Positions 1,510-59,442 are shown, counted from the first letter of the stretch. The stretch is 64,000 nt of DNA from Alphaproteobacteria bacterium (GCA_964291215.2 OZ219791.1:768001-832000); one strand, 5' to 3'. Numbers and translations are program-made. Notes: generated from the sequence alone by a model not told the origin.

Positions 1510-1525
1510 CTGCTGTTTCCTCCGG

Positions 1526-3130: not shown

Positions 3131-3295
3131 GAACTGCCTCCGCTGGCGCTGGGGTTCGGCCGATATTGGCTTGTTTGCCGGTCGTGGGCAAGCGCAGCGG
3201 AGTGCGCGCCTTGAAGTCGGGCCGACACTCCCGGATACTGTGGCCGGCACGGTCCGGCGGCCGTATGTGGACGCCGGTTGTAGAGGAGAACGGAA

Positions 3296-4564
3296 TTGCA
3301 GCACGACGACACGACTGCGGCCGGAACCGACGGCGCCGTGCCGGTTCCCGGCGCGTGGCCCGCCGACATGACGCTGATTCCGGACTGGATCTACACCGAC
3401 CCCGACATCTACGAACGCGAAAAGGACAGGATATTCCTCGGAGCGCACTGGAACTATGTCGGCCTCGAATGCGAAGCGCCGAACCCCGGCGACTATTTCC
3501 GTTCCTATGTGGGCCCGTTCCCCGTGGTCGTCGCGCGCGACGAGGACGGAGAGATCCATGTCTTCGAGAACCGCTGTGCCCATCGCGGTGTCGAGTTCTG
3601 CCGCGCCTACCGCGGGTCCGGTGAACGCTTCATCTGTCCGTATCACAACTGGACCTACAACCTTCGCGGCGATCTCGTCGCGGTGCCGTTCCGCCGCGGG
3701 GTGCGGGGCCGGGGCGGGGCGCCCGCCGGCTTCGACATGGCCGCGCACGGGCTGGCAAGGTTTCGGGTGGCGCGCCGCGGCGGCGTGGTCTTTGCGACCG
3801 TCGGCGACGAGGTCGAATCCCTCGAGGATTATCTCGGGCCGGGCATCCTCAAGGAGTTCGACGCCACCTTCGACGGCGGCGAGATGCGGCTCCTCGGCGT
3901 CCACCGCAATCTCGTCCGAAGCAACTGGAAGCTCTACCAGGAGAACCTCAAGGATCCCTATCATGCGACGCTGCTGCACACCTATCTGACGACGTTCGGC
4001 CTCTTCGTCACCAGCAATGAGACCAGCATTCCAACCGACGCGCGCGGCCGCCATGGCGGCCTTCTGACGCGGCGGCCCGAAGGTCGGCCGGAGGTCACCG
4101 AAGAGGAGCAGAGCGACATGCAGGCGTTTCGCGCCGCGATGGAGCTGAACGACCCCCGCGTGCTCGATTTCGTGCGTGAATTCGAGTCCGAATGGTCGGC
4201 CTCGGTGCTGACGATCTTCCCGACGCTCACGGCGTTGCGCCAGACCAACATTCTCAACACGCGGCTCCTGGTCCCGCGCGGCCCCGATTCCTTCATGATG
4301 GTCTGGACCGTGTTCGGGCGCGCCGGGGACGACGACGAGATGGTCCGCCACCGGCTCCGCCAGAACAACATCTTCGGCCCTGCCGGCTTCCTCGGAATCG
4401 AGGACAACGAGGCGCTCGCCTTCCTCCAGCAGGGCGTGCGGAGGTCGCGCCCGGGCTACGGGCTCGCGATGCTCGGCGACGACGGCGAGCCGGTCGACAC
4501 CATGATCACCGAACGCGCCATTCGCGGCATGTACCGCTACTACCGCGACGTGATGGATCTCTGA
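3296..4564 (+). CDS. Rieske aromatic ring-hydroxylating oxygenase alpha subunit (salicylate/anthranilate/terephthalate-type group)
   Basis: Rieske ligands NRCAHRG and CPYHNW; mononuclear Fe motif [13 protein letters not shown]; [12 protein letters not shown]. Confidence 0.92.
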
Positions 4565-5064
4565 TGACGGCGGCCGTCATGACCCCGGCCGCCGAGTGGC
4601 GCGAGATCCGCTTCGCGATCGAGGAATTCCACACCGAATATGCCGCCGTGCTCGACCGCTTCGACCTCGACCGGTGGGTCGAGTTCTTTACCGAGGACGC
4701 CGTGTACCACGTCGTCGCCCGCGACAACGAGGAGTCCGGCCTGCCGCTGGGGCTCATTTACTGCGAGGGCAAGGCGATGCTGAAGGATCGCGCCTATGCC
4801 ATCCTGAACACCGAGATGTTCGCACCGCGCTATCTCCAGCTCTCGGTGACCAACACCCGGATCCGCGCCGTGGAGGGGCAGCTGGTGCGCGCGGAAGCCA
4901 ACTACCAGCTCTTCGAGACTCTCGTCGAGGAGCCGACGCGTGTGCAGCAGGTCGGAAAGTACCGCGACCTGTTCGTCGTGGACGGCCGCGCGGTCCTGCT
5001 CAAGGAGCGTCGGTGCGTCTATGACAGCGTGATGATCGACAATTGCCTGGTGTTTCCGGTCTGA
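4564..5064 (+). CDS. Ring-hydroxylating oxygenase beta subunit
   Basis: ATG overlaps the alpha-subunit stop (TGATG); [35 protein letters not shown]; ends LVFPV. Confidence 0.9.
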
Positions 5065-25766: not shown

Positions 25767-25819
25767 GGGCGAGATATACCATGATCGTGACCGCGCCAAA
25801 ACCATGATGTCGGGTCGGC

Positions 25820-26011
25820 CACGACGATCCCACGCTGCTAATCCAGCGGCGATCGGCGAGATTTTTCGGTCTGCGTCGCGCTGCAATCGTGCCGCCAAGG
25901 CTCAATGAGACCTTCTCGGCGCGAAAAATTGCGATCAAGAGGCGATCTGTGATGACGCGAGCCCCAACGCACTCGGATTTCGCGTCTCGGAATCGGCATG
26001 GGATCGCCGTG
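25820..26011 (+). mobile_element. MITE family A (192 bp), copy 1
   Basis: TIR CACG(A/G)CGATCCCA(C/T)GC; perfect 9-bp TSD CGGGTCGGC. Confidence 0.93.
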
Positions 26012-27273: not shown

Positions 27274-27465
27274 CACGACGATCCCACGCTGCCAATCCAG
27301 CGGCGACCGGCGAGATTTTTCGGTCTGCGTCGCGCTGCAATCGTGCCGCCAAGGCTCAATGAGACCTTCTCGGCGCGAAAAATTGCGATCAAGGGGCGAT
27401 CTGTGATGACGCGAGCCCCAACGCACTCGGATTTCGCGTCTCGGAATCAGCATGGGATCACCGTG
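27274..27465 (+). mobile_element. MITE family A (192 bp), copy 2
   Basis: Near-identical to copy 1; perfect 9-bp TSD GCCCACCAG. Confidence 0.93.
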
Positions 27466-28781: not shown

Positions 28782-28973
28782 CGCGCTGATCCCAGTTTAA
28801 TTCGGAGACTCGAAATCCGAGTGCGTTGGGGCTCGCGTCATTACAGATCGCCCCTTGATCGCAATTTTTGGTGCCGAGAAGGCTTCATCGAGCCTTGGCG
28901 GCACGATTGCAGCGCGACGCAGACCGAAAAATCTTGCCAGTCGCCGCTGGACTAGCAGCGTCGGATAGCGGTG
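28782..28973 (-). mobile_element. MITE family A (192 bp), copy 3, diverged
   Basis: Reverse-complement match with substitutions; flanks GGAGAGGG / GGAGAGGA. Confidence 0.85.
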
Positions 28974-29026
28974 GGAGAGGAGCAGGGATGTCGACCTGCC
29001 GGCTCCGATGTCCTATAGTCGCGGAC

Positions 29027-43783: not shown

Positions 43784-44370
43784 CGTTCCGGCTGTCCCCA
43801 AGCACTTTCGGCGGGAAGTGCCCGCCACAACAGGCAGATTATCCCGAACTCCGGCGACAGGCAATGCGGCCACGCACAGTTTCCGGGCACAATGCGTTCT
43901 CTGCATGCGCGCCGGCTGTTCGGGCGAGCGGGTGTTGCGGCGTCTCGACGGCGACGGTCGCGCCGAAGAAAATCCTGCCGTCATCGGAATACTGCCCGCT
44001 CACACGCAGGCGCAAACTTCCGTGCAGCATGCGTCTTGTCCGGGAGTCGGCTCGGACGGCCACGGTGCGGATTGCTGCGAACATTGGCTGCAATCCGGCG
44101 ATCAGTAACCGTTCCAGTCTGAGGACACTGCCGAGCTCGACATGACCGGCGCGGGCTTCACCCTCAAAACACGTTGGCGGCCCCATAGCAGACCTGAACG
44201 GCTGGCAGTCGCCGAAGCATTGGTCTGTATGCGTTCTTGAAGGGGGGTAACTGCTCACCCCCTGGTTCCGGCTTGATGTCGGGGTAGAGCAACGAACGGG
44301 TTTTCGTGGAGATTTGACACTGCATGCCGATTCGTTTAGTGGTGGTAATCGAGAACGACGGGGACCGCCA

Positions 44371-44499
44371 GTGAACTACTTTGGATCGAAGGCGACGAGC
44401 GGGCTGTGCCAGCTGCTTCCGGGGCTCCAGCCTCCGCATGATCTGTATGTGGAAACGCATCTCGGAGGCGGCGCGCTGATGAAGCGCAAGGCCGGGTGA
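44371..44499 (+). pseudogene. N-terminal fragment of a D12-class DNA adenine methyltransferase inside IS66
   Basis: MNYFGSKATSGLCQLLPGLQPPHDLYVETHLGGGALMKRK, a Dam-type motif X / motif I region (Y.GSK..PPH..YVE...GGG). Confidence 0.7.
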
Positions 44500-45432
44500 T
44501 GGCGACGGTCAACGCGGCGCGCGAGGAGTTCGAAGCGGCCAAGACCGCGGCGCTGCCGGCAAGGTGCCGAAAGAGGCCGTGATCCGCGTCTTCGTCATCC
44601 TGCTCGACATCCTCATCGTCGTCCTTCTGGAGAAAACCACGCACGAGCCGGAACTCCGGTCTGCCGCCGTCACAGACGGACGAGAGCGTGCCGGAAGCAA
44701 GGGCCCGAAGCCGAACCAGCAGATGGGCGACAACCTGCCATCGTCGAGGAGACGGTCGCGGCCTGCGACGCCTGCGGCGCCGACGGCCCCGTCGAGCGCC
44801 GCACGACATCGTGTTCGAGGTCGTCGAGCGCCGCGCCGAGATCAAGGAATGCCCGAAGTGCAAGGCCCGGTTCCCCGACAACATCCCGTGCAGTACGGCA
44901 TCCAGGCCCTTGTCCCTGCTGGTCGCCCGGATGCTGTCCCTGCGCCGTCGCGCTCGTGCAGGCGATATCAAGCTCTCCGAGGCCTCGGCCATGCTTTCAC
45001 GATGCGTCATGGGAGGAGGCCGCCGTGGCGCACCTCCTGCAACGCCCGATGTCGACGATTTCGGATCAACAGCAAGTGGCTCCATGTCGTCGGGACGTGC
45101 AAGTTCCCGCACCGCAAGCAAGAGATCGGCCCGTGCTACAAGGGCGTCCTGGGCCTCGTACATGGCAGTGTAGCCACCAGCGGCAGCCACCTGCTGCGCG
45201 AACTGACCTTTGTCGTCGAGGCTGCCGCGCGACTGATGAAGAGCCTGCTCCCTGCCACAAGGTCAACAAGAGCGCATCCAAAACCCTGAACGACGCCGGG
45301 CGCAAGCGCTACCGCACCATCAGGGCGCCAGGGAACTGCCCGACATCCCGCCGAAAGGAAAACGCATCGCAAACGCGCACAACCTGCACGAACGTCTCGT
45401 GAAACACGAAAACCTGCGCTTCACAGACGACC

Positions 45433-47130
45433 ATCGCGGTAGGGAACCGGGTTACCCCCCGCACAGAACCGGACGTGCGCTGTTCGCATCCGGCTCCTCC
45501 CCTGACGACAAGGCGCTGGTTTGGCCACGGGTGGCGGATGCTGGCTCAGTGGGCAGCGGTGAGGGTGTCTATGTCCCCGGTGAAGTCCTTTTGGGAGCGT
45601 CGCCGAAGGGCACGCAGCTGTTTGCATTGGTGTATGAACTTCTGCAGGCTGCTTCCTGGAACGGCGTAGTAGCAGCCGTTGATAACTCACCACTTGGCCG
45701 TTTCGTGCCGGTTATCGTGCCACCGCCTGCGCAAGGCCTCCTTGATCCGCCGCAGGGTGCGGCGGATCCGTTTGCGAGATGGTTTGCGACCGACCCTGAA
45801 CCTGCCTTTCCTCGTCTGTTCGCAGAAGTGCGTCATGCCGAGGAAGTCGAACGTCTTGCCCACGCTTCCGGCGGTTTGCTCTGGCAAACCGACCGAACTC
45901 GATGATTTTCCGGGTGCAGTTCAAGTGGGCCAGTCTCTCCCCAAGGTCTCAGCGCCGCGCGTCGCCCAGACGCTGAAAGCCGCACACGAAGTCATCCGCA
46001 TAGCGGACAATGATCGTGTCGCCTCCAGCCATCCGCTTGCGCCAGTGGTTCTGGAACCAGTCGCACGTAGTGCAGGTAGACGTTCGCAAGGCATGGCGAT
46101 ACAATCGCCCCTTGCGGTGTTCCCTTGCCCGTATCCGACCAGTCGGTCCCTTCCATGACGCCGGCGTTCAGCCACTTGATGATCAGACCCCCCGATCCGT
46201 TTCCCGAGCATCGCGACCAGATGGTCGCGGTCGAGATTGTCGAAGAACCCACGGATGTCGGCGTCAACGATCCAGTTGACCTTCCGCCGTTCCACCGTGA
46301 CGGCATCGAGCGCATGATGCGCCCTGGCCGGAAGCCGTAACTAAACCCGAGGAACTCCGTCTCGTAGAGCGGCACCAGAATCACACCGCCCGCTGAAGAA
46401 TCTTGTCCTCCAGCGAGGCAATGCCAAGCGGTCGTTGCCCTCCATCCTCCTTGGGTATGTAAACCCCGGAGGCGCCCGGTACGCACCCCTGTGCACACGG
46501 GCGTGCAGGCAGTTCCACACCCTCCGCATACGCTTGCCACACAACGCCGTCCACGCCCGCCGCCGCGTCCTTCCTCAAGGAATGGAACGCATCGTGCAGA
46601 GTGTCGACCGTCACGTGGTGGAGTAAAGACGCTCTTCCGGGTTCCTCTTCGCTACCTGCGTTCAGCCGCCTGTGACCCCCGCTTCTGCGCGCGGCGCGGG
46701 CTTTGGCCAACCGCATTGCCCTTCCCTCCAGCAACTCCGCAGGCTCCGAAGAACCCTTGTTCGCCGCCTTCAACGGTACTATGGCCGAATCTGACTTCTC
46801 GTTCATCATCGGTTTACGGATTAGTTCCTTTCCTCTGCGGCCCCTCCACGACAGAGGGGCAATTGGAAGACCTCCCAGGTCCCTGCTTCGGCGCGTGCCA
46901 TGGTTCTCGGACCCCGCGGAGCCCCCCTCACCAACGCGGCTCGTTGCCTTCGGCCACGACCTCGGCACTCCGGTTTCAAAGCATCTCGTGGCTCAATAGC
47001 CTGCCGCTCCCCAACGCTTCGCCTGGCGCCTCACGACGCCCGACGCATGGTTCACGGAGAAAGTGGTGGTTAGCCTCTCTTCCTACCGGGACTTGCACCT
47101 GGCCACATTCCACCAGTTAGCCTGGCGCAC
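45433..47130 (-). mobile_element. Group II intron (RT-encoding, degraded), antisense in IS66 tnpC
   Basis: 5' end GTGCGCCAGG; domain V GAGCCGGATGCG..CGCACGTCCGGTTC; 3' end CCCTACCGCGAT; removal restores tnpC codons D-D-P-D-V-S-F. Confidence 0.92.
45500..46730 (-). pseudogene. Group II intron reverse transcriptase/maturase, many frameshifts; boundaries approximate
   Basis: YIPKEDGGQRPLGIASLEDKILQRA, FLGFSYGFRPGR, DADIRGFFD, GTPQGAIVSPCLANVYLHYV, YADD, FDFLGMTH in shifting frames; no endonuclease domain seen. Confidence 0.88.
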
Positions 47131-47385
47131 CCGATGTCAGCTTCACCAACAATGCCGGAGAACAGAAGATCAGGATGGCAAAGGTCAGGGTATCCGGATG
47201 CTTCCGCTCCACGCAAAAGCATGGTGCCGGGGCTCAAGCTACCCCACCTCCATGGCCGCACTCGGCTACAACCCACTCGTCGCCACCCAGATCGCCCTCG
47301 ACGGAAAAGCCGCAGACATCATCAACGAGCACCACGACCAATCAGAACCCAACTAGGAGTGAGTAGATACGAAGGGGGATCAATT

Positions 47386-47970
47386 ATGCCGATCACCGCC
47401 GATTTAACGATTCGCGAAACCGCGGCTCTGTCGGGGTTTTCGAAGATAACCGTGGCAAAGTCCCTGGAAGTAGGCATTTTGTGCGCTGTAGATGCTCCGG
47501 CCCGCCTTCGCGGCGGGGCGACACGCTACCTCCCAATTCGTGCCGTGGCCTATTTCAGCTCCCTCAAGGCCGCCAGTCTCACTGACTTTCTCATGCGCCA
47601 CAAGCGGGTTATCCGGGAGCATCTGGTTAGCCTTGAGCTTCTACGCCTTGAAGTGATCGAATTCGCGCGCGGTACGGTGCTCGACCTGAAGTACCTGGCC
47701 GCAGACTCGCTGTGCGAAGGCGAGCGCTACCGCGAAGCCCGGAAGCGCTACATCACCTCCGATGCGGACATTCTGGGAGGCACGCCGGTAATCAGGGGAA
47801 CCCGCCTGACGGTCTATGCGATCTTGGCACGGCTGCAGGGCGGCGATACCGTCGACGATCTCGAAGCGGACTACCCGGAGCTGCCTCGCGAGGCGTTCAT
47901 GGCCGCCGCACTCTACGCCCATCCGCTTCTGGGACGTCCGTCGGGCAGGCCTTGGCGAAACGTCGCCTGA
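47386..47970 (+). CDS. DUF433-domain antitoxin-like protein
   Basis: YITSDADILGGTPVIRGTRLTV..LQGGDTVDDLEADYPEL; RBS lies within the IS66 TSD. Confidence 0.85.
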   Translation: MPITADLTIRETAALSGFSKITVAKSLEVGILCAVDAPARLRGGATRYLPIRAVAYFSSLKAASLTDFLMRHKRVIREHLVSLELLRLEVIEFARGTVLDLKYLAADSLCEGERYREARKRYITSDADILGGTPVIRGTRLTVYAILARLQGGDTVDDLEADYPELPREAFMAAALYAHPLLGRPSGRPWRNVA

Positions 47971-48112
47971 ATTCCGACCCCCAACGGGCACATGCGCCTG
48001 CTTCTTGACGAGTGCCTGTTGCCGAGTATCGGTCAAGTACTTATGCCCGGGGCTTGCATGTCGCCATGAATCCGCGGGATTTCGGTGGTCTGGGTGCGTC
48101 GGACCACGTGGT

Positions 48113-49362
48113 CACATCCATCCCATGCTAATCACCTGAATCTAAAGTTCGTGGCATAAGTTTTGTTCGACGCGGAGACAGAAGCGCTTGACGGCGGCGA
48201 GGATTTCGTCGGCTGATTTGGTCCACTTGAAGGGCTTGGGATTTTCGTTGTGGGTTGAAGGCCCGAATGTCGGTTTCGAGTTGCAAGGTCGAGCGGCCAC
48301 GTTGCAACTGCTTGCGGGTCAGTTCGGCGAACCAGCGCTCGACCTGCACGAGGCGGATGTCGGCGTGAAGTGGACGTGCCAGTGCGGCCGCCGCGCCAGC
48401 CAGACCGCGGCGGTTTTGTGGGTGGCGTAGTTGTCCATGACGATGTCGAGGCCGTCCGGGACATTGCAGTCGATCACCTTGAGGAAGTCGAGGAACTCCT
48501 TGGCCCGGTGGCGTCTGTTGCCGATGACCGCGCCGGTGGCGATGTCGAGCGCAGCGAACAGCGAGGTCGTTCCGTTGCGCTTGTAGTCATGGGTGCGCCG
48601 CTCAGGGATGCCGGGCAGGACCGGCTGGGTGCGGGCCTGGCTCTTTTCGTCGACGCCCAGCGCGCGATCCGGCGGCGAGAGGCCGACGATGTGCGGACCT
48701 TATCGACGAAGTGCGGATCACGGGAGAGCTTGAACGTCTCGGCCCGTTGCGGCTGCAGGCGCCCCAGATGCGCCAGATCGACGTCAGCCCCGCCTCCTTC
48801 GCCATCGAGCGCAGCGACCAGTGGGTCGCGGGCGTCGAGGTGAGCGTGCGCTCGATCACTTCCGCCACCTTCTCGTCCGCGATGCTCCGCGGGCGTCTCG
48901 GCTCAGCCCCTCGATGCGGTCCTTGACAAAGCGCCTGCGCCACTTGCCGACGGTGTGCACGCCGATCTCTGCGGCCACCGCCTTGTTGCCAAGCCCGTCC
49001 GCGCAACGCAGGATTATGCGGCCGACAGCGAGCGCGCCACACGGTGGCGGCGAACCTGCGCCTCCAGATACGACCGATCACTCAAGACCAGCACCGCCAA
49101 GGGCCGTCCCGTGGCATCGCCATGACCTCCGTGTTCACACTCCGACCGCCATCATACAATCATACTTACTTCAGTTCCAGATGACTAATTCGGAGACGCG
49201 AAATCCGAATGTGTTGGGGTTCGGCTCATCACAGATCGCCTCCTTGATCGCAATTTTCGTGTCAAGAAGGCCCCATCGAGTCTTGGGAACGCGATTGCAG
49301 CGCGACGCAAACTGGAAAAATCTCGCCAGTCGTCGCTGGATTGGCAGCGTGGGATCATCGTG
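48113..49362 (-). mobile_element. MITE family A copy 4, split by IS630 (48113-48130 + 49188-49362)
   Basis: 9-bp TSD CCACGTGGT / CCACGAGGT; rejoined length 193 bp. Confidence 0.85.
48131..49185 (-). mobile_element. IS630-family element, degraded transposase
   Basis: TA duplication; TIRs ATCACCTGAATCTAAAG / GTCATCTGGAACTGAAG; [32 protein letters not shown]. Confidence 0.92.
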
Positions 49363-49692
49363 CCACGAGGTCCTGGAACGATGCGTGGAGATGGACCATG
49401 TGCTGGTAGCGGAGACTGCCAAGGACTTTCGTGCGCTGGTTGTCGTGCAGGATGTGCACCACGGCTTGATCGTGCTGTCGTGCGTCGGCCAAGCGCACTC
49501 GGAGAAATTGCCGAGCGCTGCGATCGATTTTCTTGTCCGACAGGACGACTCGATGGGCATCATGGTGAACCATGTTCTTGAAGTATTCACAGACGCGGAT
49601 ATGACGCTGTATCCGTTGCCAACGCGCGAGTAGCAGGCGACTTGCGCGATGCTGTCCACTCCCTTGTAACTTGAAGGAACGGGGGCTGGAGC

Positions 49693-49884
49693 CACGGCGA
49701 TCCCATGCTGATTCCGAAACGCGAAATCCGAGTGCGTTGGGGCTCGCGTCATCACAGGTTGCCCCTTGATCGCAATTTTTCGCGCCGAGAAGGTCTCATT
49801 GAGTCTTGGCGGCACGATTGCAGCGCGACGCAGACCGAAAAATCTCGCCGGTCGCCGCTGGATTAGCAGCGTGGGATCGTCGTG
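49693..49884 (-). mobile_element. MITE family A (192 bp), copy 5
   Basis: TIRs intact; 10-bp TSD GGGCTGGAGC. Confidence 0.93.
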
Positions 49885-50096
49885 GGGCTGGAGCGCCCGA
49901 TCCGCGTCGCCGCGACGCGATGCGGGCGCAGTCTCGGGCCTGATCCGCTCAATGATGGCGAAGGCCTCTCCGGCGGCGGCAACGCCCGAATCCCGGGTTG
50001 TCGCTCGAAGGAGACGGAAATTTGGCCTCGGTCGCGGCGACTGAAAGACCGCGCATCGATTGGTTTGCCGCGCCTGTCTGCCGCCGTCGCGGCCCT

Positions 50097-50759
50097 TCAG
50101 CTGCCGAGGACGCGCGTCGCGAACTCGAGGCCGATCCCGATCCCCTCTTCGTCGATGCCGTGTCCGAGTCGGGGTCGGACATGCATGTCGGTGGCGACGC
50201 CGCACTGGCGCAGTATTGCCGCCGCCTTTTCCGTTTCGGAGACGTGGACCAGGGGGTCGTCGGCTCCATGCACGAGGGTGATCGGCGGTTTCGAGCGGAT
50301 TTCGTCGGCGAGCAGATCAGCCCCTTCCAAGCGTCCCGAATAGCCGAGTATGCCCGCGACCGCCGTTGCGCGCCGCGGTCCGACGAACAGCGACATCATC
50401 GTGCCTTGCGAGAACCCGACGAGGAGAAGGTTCTCCTCGCCGAGATCATGCGCCGCCAGCTGGCCAGTAATGAAATCGTCGAGAATCGCGGCGGCCGACC
50501 GGATCTCCGCGAGGCGCTCGGCCCGGCCCTGCTGCCACACGTCGTACCACTGGAAGCCGAAGGGCTGGGCGGCACAGCGTGCAGGAGCGTTGGGCGCCAC
50601 GAATGCGGCGTCCGGGACGACGGACGCAAAGGTCTGGCTCAGCGAGATCAGATCGTTGCCGTCGGCGCCGTAGCCGTGCAGGAACATGACGAGGTGGCGG
50701 GCGGTGCCGCCCGAAGCCGGTCCTGCCTGGGGTCCCGCGAGTCGAACCTCTCCGTTCAC
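50097..50759 (-). CDS. Phospholipase/carboxylesterase (alpha/beta hydrolase)
   Basis: FLHGYGADGND, GFSQG, HGADD, GHGID. Confidence 0.92.
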   Translation of the reverse strand: MNGEVRLAGPQAGPASGGTARHLVMFLHGYGADGNDLISLSQTFASVVPDAAFVAPNAPARCAAQPFGFQWYDVWQQGRAERLAEIRSAAAILDDFITGQLAAHDLGEENLLLVGFSQGTMMSLFVGPRRATAVAGILGYSGRLEGADLLADEIRSKPPITLVHGADDPLVHVSETEKAAAILRQCGVATDMHVRPRLGHGIDEEGIGIGLEFATRVLGS

Positions 50760-50796
50760 CGGACTCGCCCTTCCGGCCTGATGGCTGACCTTGCGT

Positions 50797-51435
50797 TCAT
50801 TCTGCGTTTCCCTTCCTTGTCCGGACGGTGTTGAGGTAATGATGCCAAAGGATGCGCGCCGCAACGCTTCGCCACGGCCGCCAGGCTTCGCCGATCCCGG
50901 TCAGTTCGGCCGGGCCGGGGCGTGCGTCCAGCTCCTTTACGTCCTTCGCGGCGGCCTGGAGCGCGATGTCGCCGACCGGCCAGACATCGGGCCGCATCAG
51001 GCATGTCAGCAAGTAGACATCCGCGGTCCACGAGCCTATGCCCTTGATGCGCGTGAGTTCGCTGCGCACGTCGTCGTCTATCTTGCGGCCGAGGCGGTCG
51101 ATGCGAAGCGAACGGTCGAGAACGCTGTCTCCCAGATGGCGGATATAGCGGGTTTTCTGGCGGCTGACGCCGGCCGCCCGGAACTCCTGGTCCGACAGCT
51201 GTCCGACCCGTTCCGGTGTCAGGGATCCGGCAGTGGCGGTGAGACGCCGATAGGCTGCTTGCGCCGAACTCAGCGAGACCTGCTGTTCGAGAATCAGCAG
51301 GACCAGCGTCGCGTAGCCACCGGTTCGGCGCCACATCTTCGGGCGGCCGAACCGGCTGACGATCGCGCCGAGATCGGCATCCCGTTCGGCAAGCGTCGCG
51401 ACTGCGTCGTTGAAAGTCTTGTTGGTCAGGCGCAC
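50797..51435 (-). CDS. DNA-3-methyladenine glycosylase (AlkA/HhH-GPD family)
   Basis: ILEQQVS, IKGIGSWTAD, WPVGD, WRPWRS. Confidence 0.9.
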   Translation of the reverse strand: MRLTNKTFNDAVATLAERDADLGAIVSRFGRPKMWRRTGGYATLVLLILEQQVSLSSAQAAYRRLTATAGSLTPERVGQLSDQEFRAAGVSRQKTRYIRHLGDSVLDRSLRIDRLGRKIDDDVRSELTRIKGIGSWTADVYLLTCLMRPDVWPVGDIALQAAAKDVKELDARPGPAELTGIGEAWRPWRSVAARILWHHYLNTVRTRKGNAE

Positions 51436-51514
51436 AATCGCTTCGCCGTCCTGCGATCAACATCGAAATCGTCGTGTTTCTGCTGATCGGACCTTATCCC
51501 ACACGCGTGTCGCC

Positions 51515-52372
51515 ATGGCAAAATTCCGTACTGAGGCCGAGGTCACCCGGTTCGCTCCCAGCCCGACCGGCCATCTCCACATCGGCCACGCCTATTCGGC
51601 GTTGAAGGCCTACCGGGGGCGCGGCCCGGGCGGAAGTTTCCTGCTCCGCATCGAGGACATAGATCCCGGGCGCTGCCGCGACGAGTTCGTGGAAGCGATC
51701 TGCGAGGATCTGCGCTGGCTCGGCCTCGGTTGGGAAGAACCGGTGCGGCGGCAGTCGGAGCACATGGACGATTATCTGCGGGCCGCCGCCGCGCTCAAGC
51801 GCGGCGGCCTCGTCTATCCCTGCTTCTGCACGAGATCGGATATCCGCCTTGAGATCGAGCGGTCCGGCCAGGCGCCGCACGGGCCGGAGGGCCCGGTGTA
51901 TCCGGGCCTCTGCCGCGGGCTCTCGCCGGCGGAACGGACGGCGGCGTTCGCGGACAGCAGGCCTTATGCGCGTCGTCTCGATGTCGTTCGCGCCGCCGCC
52001 ACGGCCGGGCCGCTGGCATGGCGCGATCTTGGAAGGGGCGACATTGCGGCCCGTCCGGAGCACTTCGGCGATATCGTTCTCGCCCGCAAGGATGTTCCCA
52101 CAAGCTACCATCTCTCGGTTGTCGTCGACGACCATCTGCAGGGAGTTACTCTGGTAACCCGCGGAGAAGATCTGGCGCCGCTCACGGACATCCACAGGTT
52201 GTTGCAGGTGCTTCTGGATTACGAGCCGCCGGAATACCTGCACCATCGGCTGATCACAGATCCCGGCGGCCGGCGGCTTGCGAAGCGCGACAGCGCGATG
52301 ACGATCCGCAGCCTGCGCATGAGCGGCCACACGCCGTCCGACGTGATCGCCATGACGGGACTCGAGACCTGA
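51515..52372 (+). CDS. gluQ: Glutamyl-Q tRNA(Asp) synthetase
   Basis: TRFAPSPTGHLHIGH, LRIEDID, YPCFCTR, RLAKR; no anticodon domain. Confidence 0.93.
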   Translation: MAKFRTEAEVTRFAPSPTGHLHIGHAYSALKAYRGRGPGGSFLLRIEDIDPGRCRDEFVEAICEDLRWLGLGWEEPVRRQSEHMDDYLRAAAALKRGGLVYPCFCTRSDIRLEIERSGQAPHGPEGPVYPGLCRGLSPAERTAAFADSRPYARRLDVVRAAATAGPLAWRDLGRGDIAARPEHFGDIVLARKDVPTSYHLSVVVDDHLQGVTLVTRGEDLAPLTDIHRLLQVLLDYEPPEYLHHRLITDPGGRRLAKRDSAMTIRSLRMSGHTPSDVIAMTGLET

Positions 52373-52488
52373 CCGCCGCCCGCAACCGCGGCGTCGCACG
52401 GCGGGGCGGCGCAGGCGCGAGCCCAGACGCTTTCTCGCCTGACCAGAATCATGTTGTCAACGGGCGGTTTTGAAACCATATTTCCCGC

Positions 52489-52686
52489 ATGTTCGCCGTG
52501 CTGCCGATCCTGATCGCGCTTGCCGTGTTCCTCACGCTTGGCGCGCTTGCCTTCGGCGTCTTCACGATGGCGCGGGGCGGGCAGGCCAATGCCCGCAATT
52601 CCAACCGGCTGATGCGCGCCCGGGTGATCCTGCAGTTCATCGCCATCACGTTGATCCTGATAGCGTTCCTCGTCTCGTCCGACTGA
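52489..52686 (+). CDS. Twin-transmembrane HIG1-domain small protein
   Basis: SNRLMRARVILQ motif between two TM helices. Confidence 0.88.
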   Translation: MFAVLPILIALAVFLTLGALAFGVFTMARGGQANARNSNRLMRARVILQFIAITLILIAFLVSSD

Positions 52687-52949
52687 GACCTCGCCCGCCT
52701 GCGGTGTCCGTTTGAAGGCCACGCGTGTTTTCGGCTATATAGCGTCCCGTCCGCGTCCCGTGCCCGGCGGACGCCTGCCGGGATGCACGGCCCCGGTCCG
52801 GGGCTGAGTTTTTCGGTATTGCTGGCTTGGCGGCGGTCGTCCCGGACGCCGGGATGCAGTTTCCGGACGGTGGCGGATCGGTCCCGGCGGGCCGGCACCG
52901 GGCGCCCGGCCCATGGCGGGTCCCGCTTTTAGCTGGAGGACTTCGAGCG

Positions 52950-53699
52950 ATGAAAATTCTGGTCGCCGTCAAACGGGTGATCGACTACAACGTCAAGATC
53001 CGAGTCAAGACGGACGAGACTGGCGTCGAAACCGCCAACGTCAAGATGTCGATGAATCCCTTCGACGAGATTGCCGTCGAAGAGGCCCTGCGCCTGCGCG
53101 AAAAGGGCGCCGCGACCGAGATCGTCGTCGTCTCCATGGGAGTGCAGCAGTGCCAGGAGACGATCCGTACGGCCCTTGCGATGGGCGCCGACCGCGGCAT
53201 TCACGTCAAGACGAACTCCGAACTCCAGCCGCTTGCGGTGGCCAAGCTTCTGGCGCGGATCATCGAGAACGAGACGCCGGACGTTGTCATTCTGGGCAAG
53301 CAGGCGATCGATGACGATGCCGGCCAGACCGGCCAGATGCTGGCCGGCCTCCTGAACCGGCCTCAGGGAACGTTCGCGTCGAAACTCGACCTTGTCGACG
53401 GCAAGGCGGCCGTAACCCGCGAGGTCGATGGCGGCCTCGAGACCGTGCTCCTCGGTCTGCCGGCAATCGTGACGACGGATCTCCGCCTGAACGAGCCGCG
53501 ATACGCTTCGCTGCCAAATATCATGAAAGCCCGGAAGAAGCCGATCGAGGAACTCACCCCGGAGGAGATGGGCGTTGACGTCGCGCCGCGGCTGACGACG
53601 CTGAAGGTGACCGAGCCGCCGCAGCGCCAAGCTGGCGTCAAGGTGGAGACCGTGGCCGAACTCGTGGACAAGCTGAAGACCGAGGCAGGAGTGATCTGA
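52950..53699 (+). CDS. etfB: Electron transfer flavoprotein beta subunit
   Basis: [44 protein letters not shown]. Confidence 0.97.
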
Positions 53700-54649
53700 T
53701 GGCAGTTCTTGTCGTTTCCGACCACGACAATTCGGCGCTGGTGCCGATCACCCTGAACACGGTCACGGCGGCGTCCGGGCTTTCCGATGACATACATATG
53801 CTGGTGGCCGGCAGTGATGCCGGCGCCGCGGCCGAGGCCGCGGCGAGGATCGGCGGCGTGACAAAGGTCATTCATGCCGAACATCCGGCTTACGGCAACC
53901 ATCTGGCCGAAGCCGTCGCTCCGATCGTTGTCGGGCTCGCGCCGGGCTACAGCCATATCTTCTTTCCGTCGAACACGACCGGCAAGAACATCGCCCCGAG
54001 AGTTGCCGCCCAGCTCGATGCGGCGCAGATCTCTGACATCGTCGAAATCGTCTCGGAGGATACGTTCGTGCGCCCGATCTATGCCGGCAACGCGCTCGCC
54101 ACCGTGCGCTCCTCCGATGCGATCAGGGTCATCACCGTGCGCGGCACCGCGTTCGCGGCGGCGGAAGAGGGCGGCGCGGCGGCGATCGAGAAGATCGATG
54201 CCGCGGAAGATCCCGGACTTTCCAGCTTTGTCGGACATGAACTCACGAAGTCGGAACGGCCGGAGCTTACGTCGGCTCGGGTGATCATCTCCGGTGGGCG
54301 TGGCATGCAGTCCGGAGACAATTTCGCGCTGATCGACAAGGTGGCGGATCGCCTCGGTGCCGCCGTGGGCGCCTCGCGTGCCGCGGTCGACGCCGGTTTC
54401 AAGCCCAATGACTACCAGGTCGGGCAGACCGGCAAGGTGGTGGCGCCGGAACTCTATATCGCGGTCGGAATTTCCGGTGCGATCCAGCATCTTGCCGGCA
54501 TGAAGGATTCGAAGGTGATCGTCGCCATCAACAAGGACGAGGAAGCCCCGATCTTTTCCGTTGCCGACTACGGAATCGTCGGTGATCTGTTCAAGTTGCT
54601 TCCCGAATTCGACGCCGAGCTGGAAAAGAACGAGATAGCGCCGCGCTGA
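53699..54649 (+). CDS. etfA: Electron transfer flavoprotein alpha subunit
   Basis: [33 protein letters not shown]. Confidence 0.97.
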
Positions 54650-54752
54650 ACCGGGCGGCTCCGATCCCCGACACAGTGGCGGGCCGGGTCCCGCCGCTCC
54701 GGAGTGCAGCTGGCCGGGCTGCATCTGACGCAAATTCGCAGGAGCAGGATTC

Positions 54753-55667
54753 ATGGCAGAAATACAGGATCCGGGCGTGACCCCGGAAGCGATGAGCGTG
54801 AACGCGGTCGGCGTCATCGGCGCGGGCCAGATGGGTTCCGGCATCGCGCATGTTGCCGCCACGGCGGGGCTCTCGGCCGTCATGATCGATGTCGGGCAGG
54901 AGCAGCTCGATCGGGCGCGCGCCGGCATTGCGAGGAACATGGAACGGCAGGTGCGGCGCGAACGCATGTCAGAGGACGAGATGAACGCCGCGCTCGAACG
55001 CATTTCGGGATCACTGGAATTCGAGGCGCTTGCGGATTGCGATGTCGTGATCGAAGCCGTGACCGAGAACGAGGCCGTCAAGCGCGGGCTCTACGAAAGG
55101 ATCCTCCCGGTCATGAGGGCCGATGCGATCCTCGCCAGCAACACGTCGTCGATCTCGATAACGCGCCTCGCCGCGACAACCGACCGGCCCCACCGGTTCA
55201 TGGGCATGCATTTCATGAATCCGGTTCCGATCATGCAACTGGTCGAACTGATTCCGGGGCTTGCCACCGACGGCCATACCCGCGCGGTCATCGAGGGTCT
55301 TACGTGGCGCCTCGGCAAGACGCCGGTAACCTCGGAGGATTTTCCCGCCTTCATCGTCAACCGGATCCTGCTGCCGATGATCAACGAAGCGGTGTACACG
55401 CTTCACGAAAGCATCGGGTCCGTGCGCGACATAGACGCCGCGATGCGTCTCGGCGCCAATCACCCCATGGGGCCACTCGAGCTTGCCGATTTCATCGGCC
55501 TCGACACCTGCCTCGCCGTCATGCAGGTCCTCCATGACGGGTTGGCTGACACCAAGTACCGTCCGTGTCCCCTCCTGGTGAAGTATGTCGAGGCGGGTTG
55601 GCTGGGGCGCAAGTCGGGCAAGGGGTTCTACGATTATTCCGGCGACACACCCGAACCCACGCGCTGA
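54753..55667 (+). CDS. hbd: 3-hydroxybutyryl-CoA dehydrogenase
   Basis: GAGQMGSG, SNTSS, GMHFMNP, HPMGP, GRKSGKGFY. Confidence 0.93.
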   Translation: MAEIQDPGVTPEAMSVNAVGVIGAGQMGSGIAHVAATAGLSAVMIDVGQEQLDRARAGIARNMERQVRRERMSEDEMNAALERISGSLEFEALADCDVVIEAVTENEAVKRGLYERILPVMRADAILASNTSSISITRLAATTDRPHRFMGMHFMNPVPIMQLVELIPGLATDGHTRAVIEGLTWRLGKTPVTSEDFPAFIVNRILLPMINEAVYTLHESIGSVRDIDAAMRLGANHPMGPLELADFIGLDTCLAVMQVLHDGLADTKYRPCPLLVKYVEAGWLGRKSGKGFYDYSGDTPEPTR

Positions 55668-55674
55668 CACGGCC

Positions 55675-56565
55675 GTGCCGGAGACGCCCGGGACCGTACC
55701 TCACTTCGAAGGCGTGTCGGCGATCGCCGGCCGGTATGACGGTTTCATTCTCGACGTGTGGGGCGTCCTGCATGACGGCGTGACGCTGTACCCCGGTGCC
55801 GTGGGCGCGCTCGACCGGCTCGCCGATGCGGGCAAGCGGTTCGTCATGCTGACCAATGCGCCGCGACGCAGCGCGGCGGTGGTCGAGGCCATGATCGCGA
55901 TGGGAATGCCCGAGCGCCATTGCCGGAACATTCTCTCCTCGGGCGAGGCGACGTTCTCGGATCTCGTCGAGGGGAGCGCACCCTTCTATGCCGACGCCGG
56001 CAATTGTTTCATTCATATCGGGCCCGATCGCGACCGCGGGCTGTTTGAGGGCGTCGGCTGGGCTGAAACGGCGGTGATCGAAGAGGCGGGGTTGATCGTC
56101 AATACCGGCCCATGGGAGGACGACGAGACGGTCTCCGACTATGAACGGTTGCTTGCGGACGCAGCTGCGCGGCGACTTCCGATGGTCTGCGCCAATCCGG
56201 ATATGATGGTGGTCCGTGGCGGTCGGCGCATCATCTGTGCAGGGGCTCTGGCCGAAAGATACGAGGAGCTTGGTGGCGCCGTGCGTTATCTCGGCAAGCC
56301 GAAAGCGGAGATCTACGACTACTGCTTCCGGGCCTTGCCCGGCATCGAGCGGTCATGTATTGCCGCCATTGGCGATTCGTTTCGCACCGATCTCGTCGGC
56401 GCCCGTAACGTCGGCGTTGACCCCGTCCTGGTCGTCGGCGGGATGCATGCGCCCGAGCTGCTGGCAGGCGATCCAGGAGATGCGCCTGATACGCAGGTAA
56501 TGATGCGGTTGTGCGAACGATGGAACGTGCAGCCAGCAGCGTCGCTTGCGTCTTTCAGCTGGTAA
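55675..56565 (+). CDS. HAD-IIA family hydrolase
   Basis: ILDVWGVLHDG, LTNAPR, CANPD, GKP, IGDSFRTD. Confidence 0.9.
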   Translation: MPETPGTVPHFEGVSAIAGRYDGFILDVWGVLHDGVTLYPGAVGALDRLADAGKRFVMLTNAPRRSAAVVEAMIAMGMPERHCRNILSSGEATFSDLVEGSAPFYADAGNCFIHIGPDRDRGLFEGVGWAETAVIEEAGLIVNTGPWEDDETVSDYERLLADAAARRLPMVCANPDMMVVRGGRRIICAGALAERYEELGGAVRYLGKPKAEIYDYCFRALPGIERSCIAAIGDSFRTDLVGARNVGVDPVLVVGGMHAPELLAGDPGDAPDTQVMMRLCERWNVQPAASLASFSW

Positions 56566-56619
56566 CCTTTCAGCCCCACACCGTTAACTCTTGGTTCATG
56601 AGGTCGTGCATAGTGGCCC

Positions 56620-58060
56620 ATGAGAATTGGCTTTCGACATCGTAACTGCTCACCGCTGCTGGTCATGGATTGCCGTTCCTGACGGCGTTCGGGGTCAAGC
56701 ATCTTTTCTCGTCCCCTTCCCTCGCTGATTGCCGGAAACCGGAGGTGCGGGTTCCGATGGGCAAGAACCGTTCCGGTCTTCGGCCGGTCTTGCTTTCCGG
56801 CCGGTGTCGCCGGGTCTGCAATGCGGTACCGAGCCCGCGGTGCGGGTTCCATCGTGCCGGCTGAGGAATCCGGCGGTGCAGCTTCAGATATCCTGACCTC
56901 TGGAGAATTGGCAGGCAAGGCCCTCCGGCGGCCGTTCAGGCGGGCTTCGGAGGCAGTTCGTAGATCATGCGGAGCTCGGTTCCGAGAACGCAGGTGCCGG
57001 TTTCATTGAGTTCCTTCAGCAGTCCTGCGATGGCGGCGTTGCAGGCGGATCCGGGGATGCGCACCCGGAGGATCCCCGGTTCAGGTTCGGGGAGGATGTC
57101 GGCGTCGGCCTGCAGGAGGGTGCGGAGGGGTTTTCGCGGGCGCGGTTTCCTGCCCTGCTCCTTCGCCACGGCCGCCATCGTCCGGGTTTCGGCGCGGTAG
57201 GCGATCATGCGCAGGATGTCGAGCCGGTGCTTCTCCCGGAACGGAAGAGCATCGAGGGCCGGATCGGCGGCGAGTTCCCGGATGCGAACGCCGTCAGGAA
57301 AGGCGGCCAATGATCAGCAGGGGCGAGCAGTTACTCGACATCTGTCCACGACGACGGTTGATTGGCTGAAGGTGGCGTCGGTTGCCGAGAGCAGCACGCC
57401 CTGGCGCAGGGATTGTGCGAGCGCGAGGACTGGCGCAACGCGAAGGGCGAGCTGTGCCTTGCCGCGTGCGGCACTACCTGGTCTTGTCTCGGAGCTCGGC
57501 ATCGTCCTTCCTGCACCAGGGCCTCATGGCCTCGACACCCTTGAGCGGAACTGTCCCGACAAGGCACTCGCATGTTCTCCGGAGGAGCTTGGAGAGGTCA
57601 CCGTGGAGCCGGTCGGCGACGGCGAGGACAAGCGCCTGGCGATGATGGCGACCTGGCATCCCGAGGGCGAGGCGCCCGGATGAGCTACCGGATCACCTCG
57701 TCGCGCTACGGCCGCCTCGGCGGCCTGGTGTTCCGTGCGGCCAGTTGGCATCAGAAGGCGCGCGACGACTTCCGGTCCCGGGGAGCGCGTGACGTCCACC
57801 TCGCCAAGGTCGTCAACAACGCTCGCTTGCTGATACTTCCATCGCTCACCGTCCCGAACCTCCGCTCCCACATCCTCTCGCTTGTCCGCAAGCGGCTGCC
57901 CGGGGACTGAACCGAGCGCTACGGCACCACGCCCGTGCCCTGCGAGACCCTGGTCGAGGTCCCGTGCCACGGCGGCGTCTGCCGGATCCGCGTCGGAATA
58001 ACCAGCGGCCGCTACGACCGACATGACAGAAGTCGAAGAAGGACATCTGGCCCGCTCCGC
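56620..58060 (+). pseudogene. DUF4338 (DruA-like) mobile-element-associated gene, interrupted and frameshifted; 3' end approximate
   Basis: MRIGFRH|LSTTTVDW rejoins across a 693-bp insert; LCEREDWRNAKG, GGLVFRAASWHQKARD, VVNNARLLILP..PNLRSHILS, ERYG..PV..ETLV. Confidence 0.8.
56642..57334. mobile_element. Non-autonomous IS66-ended element (693 bp) carrying the C-terminus of an unrelated transposase
   Basis: TIRs GTAACTGCTC(A/G)CC; perfect 8-bp TSD TCGACATC; internal minus-strand fragment RMIAYRAET..LNET..GTELRMIYEL. Confidence 0.85.
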
Positions 58061-58094
58061 AAGGACTGGAAGCTGACCCTCGATCGCTGAACCC

Positions 58095-58302
58095 TGCAAC
58101 TGGCACAGGATGGCGTTCAGCTCCTCCTCCGCAGCGCCGGGACAAAACCGCAACCAATGCGGAAAACACGGCATGGCACCAGTGCCCCTCACCGCGCATC
58201 CCGCCCAGCCGTCCACGAAACCGCTCCGGGTGACGCTGGAACTCCCTGACAAGAGCCCGTCAAACGGACAAAAACAACAACACCTCACCGCACGAACGCT
58301 TA
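58095..58302. repeat. ~200-bp IS66 subterminal segment, inverted copy of ~18132-18340
   Basis: Shared GCAGCGCCGGGACAAAACCGCAACCAATGCGGAAAACAC..CACCGCACGAACGCT; its TIR is completed at 59443-59446 after ISAzo13. Confidence 0.85.
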
Positions 58303-59442
58303 GGTCCCGCGCCAAAATAGATTGTTTTTTGGTGTGGATCTGCCATCGATGATGTCATGGAAGCGATGGTCGATACGCTGCGATCCAAATTTGTGGTGTT
58401 GCGTCCGGTTCTGGACGAACGTGCGCGGCGCCTGTGGGCGGCGGCCCGTGCCATCGGGCGAGTGGTCGAGGCGACGGGGATGGGCACCGTTCGCGCCGGA
58501 GGAGCTTGATTCGGAGTCTTTGAGTGAGATTCCTTCAGGACGTTTGCGTCGCCCCGGCGGCGGGCGCAACGGATCCGGGGTTGGTGGTGGCGCGCGAGCT
58601 TGAACCGATGACGCGCGGCGATCCGGAGAGCTCGTTGCGGTGTCACAGTGCCGCACGGCTGGCGGACCGTCTTGCGGGGCCACCGCGTCAGCGAGCGCAC
58701 GATGAACCGGCTGCTCCACGATCCGGGGTACAGCCTCCAGGCCAACCGCAAGACGCTGGAAGGTCGCCAGCCCGGGATGCGCAGTTCCGACGCGCCGGGT
58801 GCGCGCGTTCCGGAGTCTGGGCCAGCCTGTGGTGACACGAAGAAGAAGGAAATCCAGTACCGCAATGGCGGCCGGGCCCCAAGGGCGACCCTGAGGCCGT
58901 CAACGTGCATGACTTCCCCGATCCGGAGCTCGGATCCCCTGCGGGGTCTACGATCTCACCGCCAATGCCGGCCGGGTCAGCGTCGGGCACGACACGGCGG
59001 TGTTCGCGGTCGAGACCCTGCTGGTGGCGGCAGATGGGCCGGCTGCTCTGTCCCGATGCCTGCTGATCACCGCCGACGGCAGCAGCCGCAACCGGCTGTG
59101 GAAGCTGCAGCACCTCGCCGACGAACTCGGGTTGAAGGTGTCGGTGGCCCACTTCCCGCCCGGAAAGTGGAACAAGATCGAGCACCGGATGTTCTGCCAC
59201 ATCACCCGGAACTGGCGCGGCCGGCCCCTCGTCAGCTACCAGGTGATCGTCAAGCTGATCGCCGCGACCACCACCGGTCTCACCATACGCTCGCACCTCG
59301 ACGAGAACAGCTATCCGCTCGGGGTCAAGGTCAGCGACGATCAGATGGGCGGCCTCGCCATCCGCAGAGACCCGTTCCACGGCGAGTGGAACTACACCCT
59401 CACGCCACGGACATAACAATCAATTTATTTTGGCGAGATACC
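58303..59442 (+). mobile_element. ISAzo13-family element, degraded transposase
   Basis: TIRs GGTCCCGCGCCAAAATAGATTG / GGTATCTCGCCAAAATAAATTG; TTA duplication; GYSLQANRKTLEG, DTKKKE, KWNKIEHRMF, NWRGRPL, FHGEWNY. Confidence 0.92.

Follow-up and report, generated by a model that had tools for sequence, protein, structure and literature searches.

In the genome of an uncultured alphaproteobacterium (G000, a two-contig assembly of 6.15 Mb that is 99% complete, with 64% GC, one 16S gene and a host gene whose nearest relatives are alphaproteobacterial), insertion sequences (ISs) and group II introns are perforated by small deletions that peak at 5-7 bp. We analyzed these deletions in the mobile elements of a 64-kb window of this genome (C2:768001-832000; hereafter the window), in the genomic copies of the same elements, and in related genomes. 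The deletions form a distinct size class, are specific to some lineages of the genus, and occur also in single-copy DNA. In repeats, they are shared between copies, are linked over short distances, are skewed towards high frequency, and depend on the copy number and length of the element. The explanation that we consider probable is that a 5-7-bp deletion process specific to this lineage supplies the deletions, and that deletion-biased gene conversion among copies multiplies them.

Mobile elements of the window carry dense and shared deletions

A first-pass annotation of the window had described dense microdeletions in its mobile elements, and had proposed as possible causes a cut-and-repair mutagenesis aimed at transposase and reverse transcriptase (RT) genes or an unusually strong slippage bias. 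The density was borne out, as the window copies of IS66, the intron, IS630 and ISAzo13 contain one deletion every 44-77 nt. So was the broader view of an unusual deletion process whose outcome resembles fungal repeat-induced point mutation (RIP), with mobile elements bearing nearly all of the load. The elements in question are the following.

44247..45432, + strand: IS66-like element, left part, with a degraded tnpC and no tnpA or tnpB seen
45433..47130, - strand: group II intron inside IS66, with a degraded RT frame (52 copies)
47131..47370, + strand: right part of the IS66-like element with its terminal inverted repeat, the final ~130 nt nearly without deletions
48131..49187, - strand: IS630-like element, degraded, at a TA within a miniature inverted-repeat transposable element (MITE; 9 copies of the IS)
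58322..59442, + strand: ISAzo13-family element, degraded (PF07592, 20 copies)

For each element, we merged its copies in the genome into a union and counted deletions in the window copy against it. The IS66 copy, which is flanked by an 8-bp target duplication (44239-44246 and 47371-47378) and belongs to a family represented in G000 by 233 left ends and by 166 copies with paired ends, has 41 deletions and 25 substitutions relative to a union of 1792 nt. The intron has 30 deletions (three of them of 1 nt and probably alignment noise) and 18 substitutions relative to 1874 nt; IS630 has 24 deletions (140 bp) and 10 substitutions relative to 1195 nt; ISAzo13 has 16 deletions (114 bp) and 19 substitutions relative to 1235 nt, with no deletion within the first 100 or the final ~135 nt. 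Most of these deletions are found in other copies as well (41/41, 30/30, 20/24 and 13/16, respectively), which speaks against independent cutting and microhomology repair in each copy. The union of the nine IS630 copies opens a frame of 353 aa, and the window copy opens at most 159 aa; the name IS630 follows from motifs recognized earlier and from the TA site, the window fragments having no Pfam match. Eight gaps that the first-pass annotation had placed by comparison with the family consensus, six in IS630 and two in ISAzo13, each match a 6-nt deletion. In the intron, deletions cover nearly the whole length, including the non-coding 5' and 3' parts as well as the RT frame. RVT_1 fragments are found in sister intron copies, and the RT matches across G000 are all partial.

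Deletions peak at 5-7 bp and carry a weak edge motif

DNA present in at least three copies amounts to 1.82 Mb, or ~30% of G000, by k-mer counting, and 35-36% is masked at two or more copies. We looked at 109 repeat seeds and catalogued 89 families, sampling at most 28 copies per family and 115 of 116 for IS66. These families contain 1150 distinct deletion alleles, 627 of which are of 5-7 bp. The counts are 143, 45, 41 and 20 for sizes of 1 to 4 nt, 157, 301 and 169 for 5, 6 and 7 nt, 46 for 8 nt, and 37 for 12 nt, where there is a second bump. Contrary to the spread of ~1-10 bp given at first pass, the sizes thus peak at 5-7 bp. Deletions in bacterial pseudogenes normally follow a power law in size, according to passages of PMC6054270.

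The proposed role of microhomology held in part. At least 2 nt of microhomology is present at 282 of the 627 junctions of 5-7-bp alleles (128 expected), but none at 188 of them, nor at 165 of 321 junctions in the distant congener G002. Microhomology is thus enriched and not required, and it does not mark most junctions in the manner of alternative end joining (A-EJ). How frequent an allele is cannot be predicted from the length of its microhomology (rho -0.01), contrary to a loss driven by microhomology. A weak motif, S|D-Y (G or C, then not C, then a pyrimidine, read inward), is found independently at both deletion edges, which suggests a symmetric staggered cut. Both edges match in 40 of 188 cases; chance predicts 11, and independence of the two edges 43. 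Hot sites are dominated by one length each (mean share 0.99 at 18 low-microhomology sites).

Copies are mosaics and deleted alleles are frequent

The 115 IS66 copies average 27.3 deletions (5-14 nt) and 25.9 substitutions each (ratio 1.05). Linkage decays for single nucleotide polymorphisms (SNPs) and for deletions, with r2 of 0.03-0.10 beyond 30 bp and all four gametes in 71-99% of such pairs. Nearest neighbors differ by a median of 43 events, and there is no near-identical clade. Among the 5-7-nt IS66 alleles, singletons are 9 of 66, and most of the load is shared. The question of shared versus independent deletions, raised at first pass, is therefore answered in favor of sharing, yet between mosaic copies and not within one pre-degraded lineage.

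We compared allele frequencies in the 15 families with at least 14 copies, polarizing SNPs through the C>T asymmetry without an outgroup. Of the 5-7-nt alleles, 150 out of 328 (46%) are at a frequency of 50% or higher, compared with 56 under a neutral spectrum; for SNP alleles, the corresponding fraction is ~4% of 1743. Deletion density rises with copy number (rho 0.67 over the 89 families), from 0.9/kb at three copies to 12-14/kb at 20 or more. The deletion load per substitution is ~1 in IS66 and ~0.01 in single-copy DNA and MITEs, a ~100-fold difference, and the ratio of singleton 5-7-nt deletions in repeats is 0.03-0.05 per substitution.

The deletion class is present in single-copy DNA and is lineage-specific

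For comparison, we used the sister genome G001, which is 94% identical to G000. In 1.0 of its 5.0 Mb, ~0.69 Mb could be aligned as single-copy DNA. Here, 5-7-nt deletions number 86 in G000 and 9 in G001 (37:2 in 617 kb of coding and 49:7 in 72 kb of non-coding DNA), whereas 1-4-nt indels are symmetric (206 and 185; 26:22 coding and 180:163 non-coding). Deletions of 8-19 nt are also in excess in G000 (68 vs 15). Single-copy DNA has the same size peak and the same dip at 4 nt as the repeats. When an intact IS4 transposase of G001 was aligned to the IS4 family of G000, all 20 gaps were on the G000 side, so that an outside reference returns the same polarity as the unions. Contrary to the specificity proposed at first pass, transposase genes are not the target of the deletions: they affect single-copy host DNA and the non-coding parts of the intron, and they spare the frames of young and low-copy IS66 elements. 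Host DNA has the same 5-7-nt class as the repeats, yet at the ~100-fold lower density per substitution given above.

A frameshift search using the open reading frames (ORFs) of distant congeners gave mostly antisense noise, with 41 single-copy matches in several frames and 535 in a single frame. Out of seven cases that we inspected, two are clear host frameshifts, of 7 and 1 nt. At C2 ~596950, a single-copy host gene that is 88% identical to its orthologue in the congener G004 has a 7-nt frameshifting deletion.

Read support comes from contigs, used in place of raw reads, of three public runs (X1-X3). All three belong to one study, and the contigs therefore confirm alleles and not the haplotypes of whole copies. 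Contigs of all three runs carry the deletions, which settles the concern about assembly error raised at first pass: 5-, 6- and 7-nt indel alleles occur at a depth of 850-4900, compared with ~55 for single-copy DNA (15-90x), and one 240-nt contig spans four IS630 deletions without gaps. One run shows no difference from G000 across 5.5 and 13.6 kb of single-copy sequence. The strain contigs, compared over 20 kb of such sequence, differ by indels of 6, 1, 7 and 7 nt. The joint of an intron-less IS66 is present in all three runs. The whole IS66 and intron insertion (44247-47370) is absent from the strain of run X3, which is ~1-1.5% divergent and has a contig joining both flanks. Degraded elements may thus have moved recently. 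A 1480-nt stretch at another locus of G000 (L085) is likewise skipped by a strain contig.

Within the genus, the 5-7-bp trait is patchy. In 400 kb of the distant congener G002, ~70% identical to G000, repeats have 117 alleles of 5 nt, 175 of 6 nt, 29 of 7 nt and two of 4 nt, and the deletions show the edge motif and little microhomology. There is no 5-7-bp peak in the repeats of G030 (seven gaps in 88 kb, two of 5 nt) or G004 (24 gaps in 17 kb, two of 5-7 nt). The samples of G001, G003 and G023 contained too few repeats to judge. Despite the missing peak in its repeats, G004 has host proteins that lack 2 aa in 15 places and 1 aa in six relative to G000; an earlier bout of this process may be the reason.

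MITEs, most element ends and a young family carry few deletions

Short elements and element ends served as natural controls. The MITE-A copies of the window are the following.

48113..49362 (48113-48130 and 49188-49362; 193 nt without the IS), + strand: MITE-A hosting IS630
49693..49885, + strand: MITE-A copy (others at 25819-26011, 27274-27465 and 28782-28974)

As noted at first pass, all five are 192-193 nt long, including the host of IS630 once the IS is removed; one was aligned across 187 of 193 nt. Genome-wide, the 104 MITE-A copies have two 5-6-nt alleles, in 3 and 11 copies. Their deletions amount to ~0.012 per substitution, near the 0.009 of single-copy non-coding DNA, and their SNP linkage is flat at all distances (r2 0.29-0.42). 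A second MITE, of 184 nt, has no 5-7-nt deletion in 24 copies. The ends of elements are mostly kept, again in line with the first-pass annotation, the terminal bins being deletion-poor in most full-length families. Low-copy IS66 frames are open, and 5-7-nt deletions are absent from a young family of 12 IS66 copies that are 99% identical.

A proposed sequence of deletion and biased conversion, and its alternatives

We propose two steps. First, 5-7-bp deletions arise at ~0.01-0.05 per substitution; this class is present in G000 and G002, and not in the sister G001. Their likely source would be either a staggered double cut with loss of the 5-7-nt overhangs, to which the edge motif points, or a 5-7-nt loop. 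According to passages of PMC8235422, MutS recognizes loops of up to four nt; loops of at least 5 nt would presumably escape an intact MutS. Second, short-tract conversion would copy deleted alleles over intact ones and raise the load ~100-fold, with a bias that the frequency skew suggests, probably when RecA mends breaks with a non-allelic copy as the template. A conversion that needs homology on both sides would fit the sparing of ends and MITEs. IS and intron families would be inactivated according to copy number and age, most likely as a by-product. The process is RIP-like in outcome.

Several observations weigh against this reading. The effect of copy number is hard to separate from that of age and, in small families, where shared deletions are hidden, from detection power. 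A test for local sweeps gave a diversity ratio of 0.80 within 15 nt, compared with 0.91 for SNP controls, which is no clear sweep, and SNPs altering the edge motif show no drive. The SNP frequencies depend on a polarity drawn from the C>T asymmetry instead of an outgroup. Deletions do occur within the first 100 nt of IS630 and at one end of a 1.3-kb family, and IS66 linkage at the ends is just modestly above that of the middle; cis selection for mobility may therefore also spare the ends. In single-copy events the edge motif is not enriched (-0.21 +/- 0.17, n=41, vs -0.26 for random positions; 0.41 in nine events with clean flanks), so that deletions in repeats and in single-copy DNA may differ in source. 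Finally, no dedicated gene was found among the families searched in G000.

A homology-triggered mutagenesis, a true analogue of RIP, has in our view a minor but real chance of being correct. Here, the pairing of copies would bring in a nuclease that introduces fresh 5-7-bp deletions, with loops resolved to the shorter strand. In one version, which we rate as equally doubtful, a symmetric staggered cut that removes 5-7 bp would progressively shred high-copy elements, and the nuclease would be present in G000 and G002 and missing or silent in G001. Such a process could possibly have been selected as a defence against repeats. It would account for an edge motif that is clear in repeats, singletons included (0.55 +/- 0.22), and not in single-copy events, as well as for the 60 out of 104 alleles of 10-14 nt that contain a separate 5-7-nt allele (32.5 expected). 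It would also fit the sparing of MITEs, whose linkage is flat, and a singleton ratio that is higher in repeats (0.03-0.05) than in single-copy DNA (0.009). However, this excess of new alleles is just 3-5 times the background, against a load of ~100 times, and single-copy DNA shares the size peak and the 4-nt dip. No candidate gene was found. Moreover, IS66 still has ~170 copies, and its insertion in the window is polymorphic between strains, so that any defence would be leaky.

Two further explanations appear improbable. In the first, mutation recurs with the same ends at hot spots set by the sequence, and conversion shuffles SNPs without bias. The motif score weakly tracks allele frequency (rho 0.19, p 0.01, n=181), microhomology is enriched, and there is no clear local sweep, all of which agree with recurrence; but the motif is far too weak to set one length per site and microhomology is no predictor of frequency. 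Recurrence cannot account for the MITEs, for the ends, or for single-copy DNA at ~0.01 per substitution. The second explanation, which we hold to be no better placed, assumes that pre-degraded non-autonomous masters were re-expanded and that unbiased conversion then shuffled their alleles, the skew being due to history or to a mobility advantage of shorter copies. History would have skewed SNPs too, yet 46% of deletions and ~4% of SNPs are at a frequency of at least 50%. The pattern also recurs in dozens of unrelated families and in G002, with no near-identical clades, even if degraded IS66 copies do have intact ends and target duplications and could be mobilized by young intact IS66 elements.

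A guided defence (Argonaute, CRISPR or TnpB) that cuts transposase and RT genes, followed by microhomology joining, is very improbable and largely refuted. Two Cas1 loci exist and most of the load lies in mobile genes, but we found no Piwi, Ku, ATP-dependent ligase or above-threshold TnpB, no self-targeting spacers and no strand bias, and host DNA and intron RNA regions are affected while young transposases are intact. An artefact of assembly or polishing in multi-mapping regions, which would also spare ends and short MITEs and which contigs from one study are asked to exclude, is extremely unlikely, since the alleles recur at corresponding depth in contigs that were assembled independently, the single-copy class separates strains and species, one run has 0 single-copy differences over the 5.5 and 13.6 kb, and SNPs show a biological C>T spectrum.

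Search for a responsible enzyme

In G000, we found no Piwi (Argonaute), NucS, topoisomerase IB, RecT or ComEC, and no TnpB above the cut-off. Ku and the ATP-dependent ligase were each found in none of five genomes. The frames of MutS and MutL are open and ExoVII, RecJ and RNase HII are intact; with 1-4-nt indels symmetric between G000 and G001, this is not the profile of a mutator deficient in mismatch repair. Two CRISPR arrays lie next to cas1 (C1:574173-581216 with 97 repeats and C2:2068487-2069579 with 17), and none of their 112 spacers matches outside the arrays. The 17-repeat array comes after an ORF of 1047 codons. The survey suggested at first pass, for loss of mutS or mutL and for Ku or Argonaute, thus returned none of these, and Cas1 loci without self-targeting spacers. 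Of 853 genes in the sampled part of G001, 219 are missing and nine truncated in G000. No named repair gene is among the 195 missing genes of at least 100 aa and the nine truncated ones in this 20% sample.

Other candidates were tried and rejected. Type I restriction does not discriminate, since HsdR is present in all five congeners, and a 6-7-nt overhang for EcoKI was not confirmed in passages of PMC3874165. Just a 35-position fragment of an IEE-like primase was found. Transposase footprints do not fit, as the abundant target duplications are of 8 and 9-10 bp, and those of 5 or 6 bp are rare and misfit the edge motif. Deletion coupled to transcription or to cDNA is at odds with the lack of any preference for one gene strand (8 vs 7 in IS66), deaminase activity with C>T changes that lack a TC preference, and hairpin excision with self-complementarity that is not in excess.

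Comparison with known systems

Fungal RIP is repeat-dependent, spares short repeats and leaves high-copy elements dead; it depends on a dedicated methyltransferase-like gene, by which C is changed to T anew in each copy. As in RIP, duplication and a minimum length matter here (rho 0.67 with copy number; MITEs of 184 and 193 nt nearly free). Unlike in RIP, the changes are deletions, are mostly shared, and are found also in single-copy DNA (86 vs 9).

Gene conversion among IS copies in Wolbachia was reportedly described by Cordaux in 2009. Non-functional IS copies that are kept and exchange sequence, as in the degraded IS record of Wolbachia treated in parts of PMC3205602, are found here too. 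In Wolbachia, conversion is said to maintain copies, whereas in G000 every copy is a distinct mosaic and a specific class of deletions is frequent.

A closer parallel in mechanism is the deletion-biased non-allelic conversion of Drosophila and primates, in which deletions spread faster than mutation makes them (passages of PMC3280953). According to the same passages, paralogous copies share deletions and neutral repeats shrink together, as here, where alleles are shared in short recombined tracts and deleted alleles are over-represented at high frequency. The differences from that account, which mentions no narrow size class, are the bacterial host, the 5-7-bp peak, the tens of unrelated IS and intron families, and a load of about one deletion per substitution.

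Bacterial pseudogene deletions, as described in passages of PMC6054270, follow a power law with an excess of 3n sizes and 43% microhomology, and are discussed there along with Ku-independent A-EJ. The absence of Ku and LigD and the partial microhomology (45% with at least 2 nt) are similar in G000. Unlike in those passages, sizes of 5 and 7 are here as enriched as 6 relative to 2-4, and reading frame is therefore not the cause. Parts of PMC5850275 describe an asymmetry of transformation, or chromosomal curing, in which recombination deletes more readily than it inserts; they concern kilobase islands and outside DNA, and we found no ComEC in this genus.

No report of a bacterial 5-7-bp deletion signature was found in full-text searches, whose coverage leaves out most subscription journals. 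The signature differs from the power law usually seen, is confined to some lineages of one genus, and comes with internal controls in the form of a sister genome, strains, MITEs and element ends. It provides population-style evidence, drawn from a single chromosome, that deletions can be driven by recombination among dispersed copies, and suggests a guide-free route by which IS bursts are inactivated in proportion to copy number. This bears on the extinction of prokaryotic IS families and on the shedding of repeats by host-associated genomes. Since a signature-positive and a signature-negative genome are available at 94% identity, the causal gene should be findable through their full comparison.

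Other features of the window and of repeated genes

The remaining features of the window are the following.

44362..44496, + strand: N-terminal remnant of an accessory ORF of ~236 aa, located ahead of tnpC in this IS66 group (78% identity over 41 aa to the intact ORF of G004)
50097..56565: intact host genes with Pfam matches and open frames, namely esterase, HhH-GPD glycosylase, tRNA-synthetase-like, etfB, etfA, 3-hydroxyacyl-CoA dehydrogenase and HAD hydrolase
56642..57334, + strand: 693-nt element with IS66-type terminal repeats (inverted repeat I14) and a Transposase_29 fragment (PF21804) on the minus strand
57335..57900, + strand: DUF4338/DruA-like gene fragment of a repeated element (PF14236)

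The first-pass annotation was right in calling the housekeeping genes intact: all 11 adjoining host ORFs are open, and 10 of them match a Pfam family. The 693-nt element has six copies and one deletion, of 7 nt. Aligned pairwise to other copies, the DUF4338/DruA fragment shows sparser 5-7-nt gaps in both directions; one copy passed the filter and no union was built.

The ~236-aa ORF of this IS66 group occupies the usual place of tnpA and tnpB, directly ahead of tnpC. It has no match in Pfam, NCBIfam or PDB, and its motifs may be akin to those of DNA adenine methyltransferases. The young 12-copy IS66 family (C1 ~922200-924600) has this ORF, an open tnpC and a similar terminal repeat, and is a possible helper for the degraded copies. 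About 30 IS66 copies have this group II intron inserted at one shared site, with tandem intron copies at some loci.

Two groups of repeated genes were observed elsewhere in G000. The hsdM gene (520 aa) is dispersed over five loci, one of them C2:535969-537531, and its copies differ by 32-45 mismatches and no gaps, within an expanded type I restriction-modification set that includes seven HsdR_N matches. Six or seven related, very large ORFs (1300-1900 aa) are open despite their repetition (C2:922303-926526, C2:3106496-3112078, C2:2933340-2939060, C2:1885906-1890519, C1:798394-802659 and C1:1117457-1121296). In the window, a DUF433 gene at 47545-47970, between IS66 and the MITE with IS630, is followed by a short interrupted ORF, and the two are possibly a toxin-antitoxin pair broken by the insertion.

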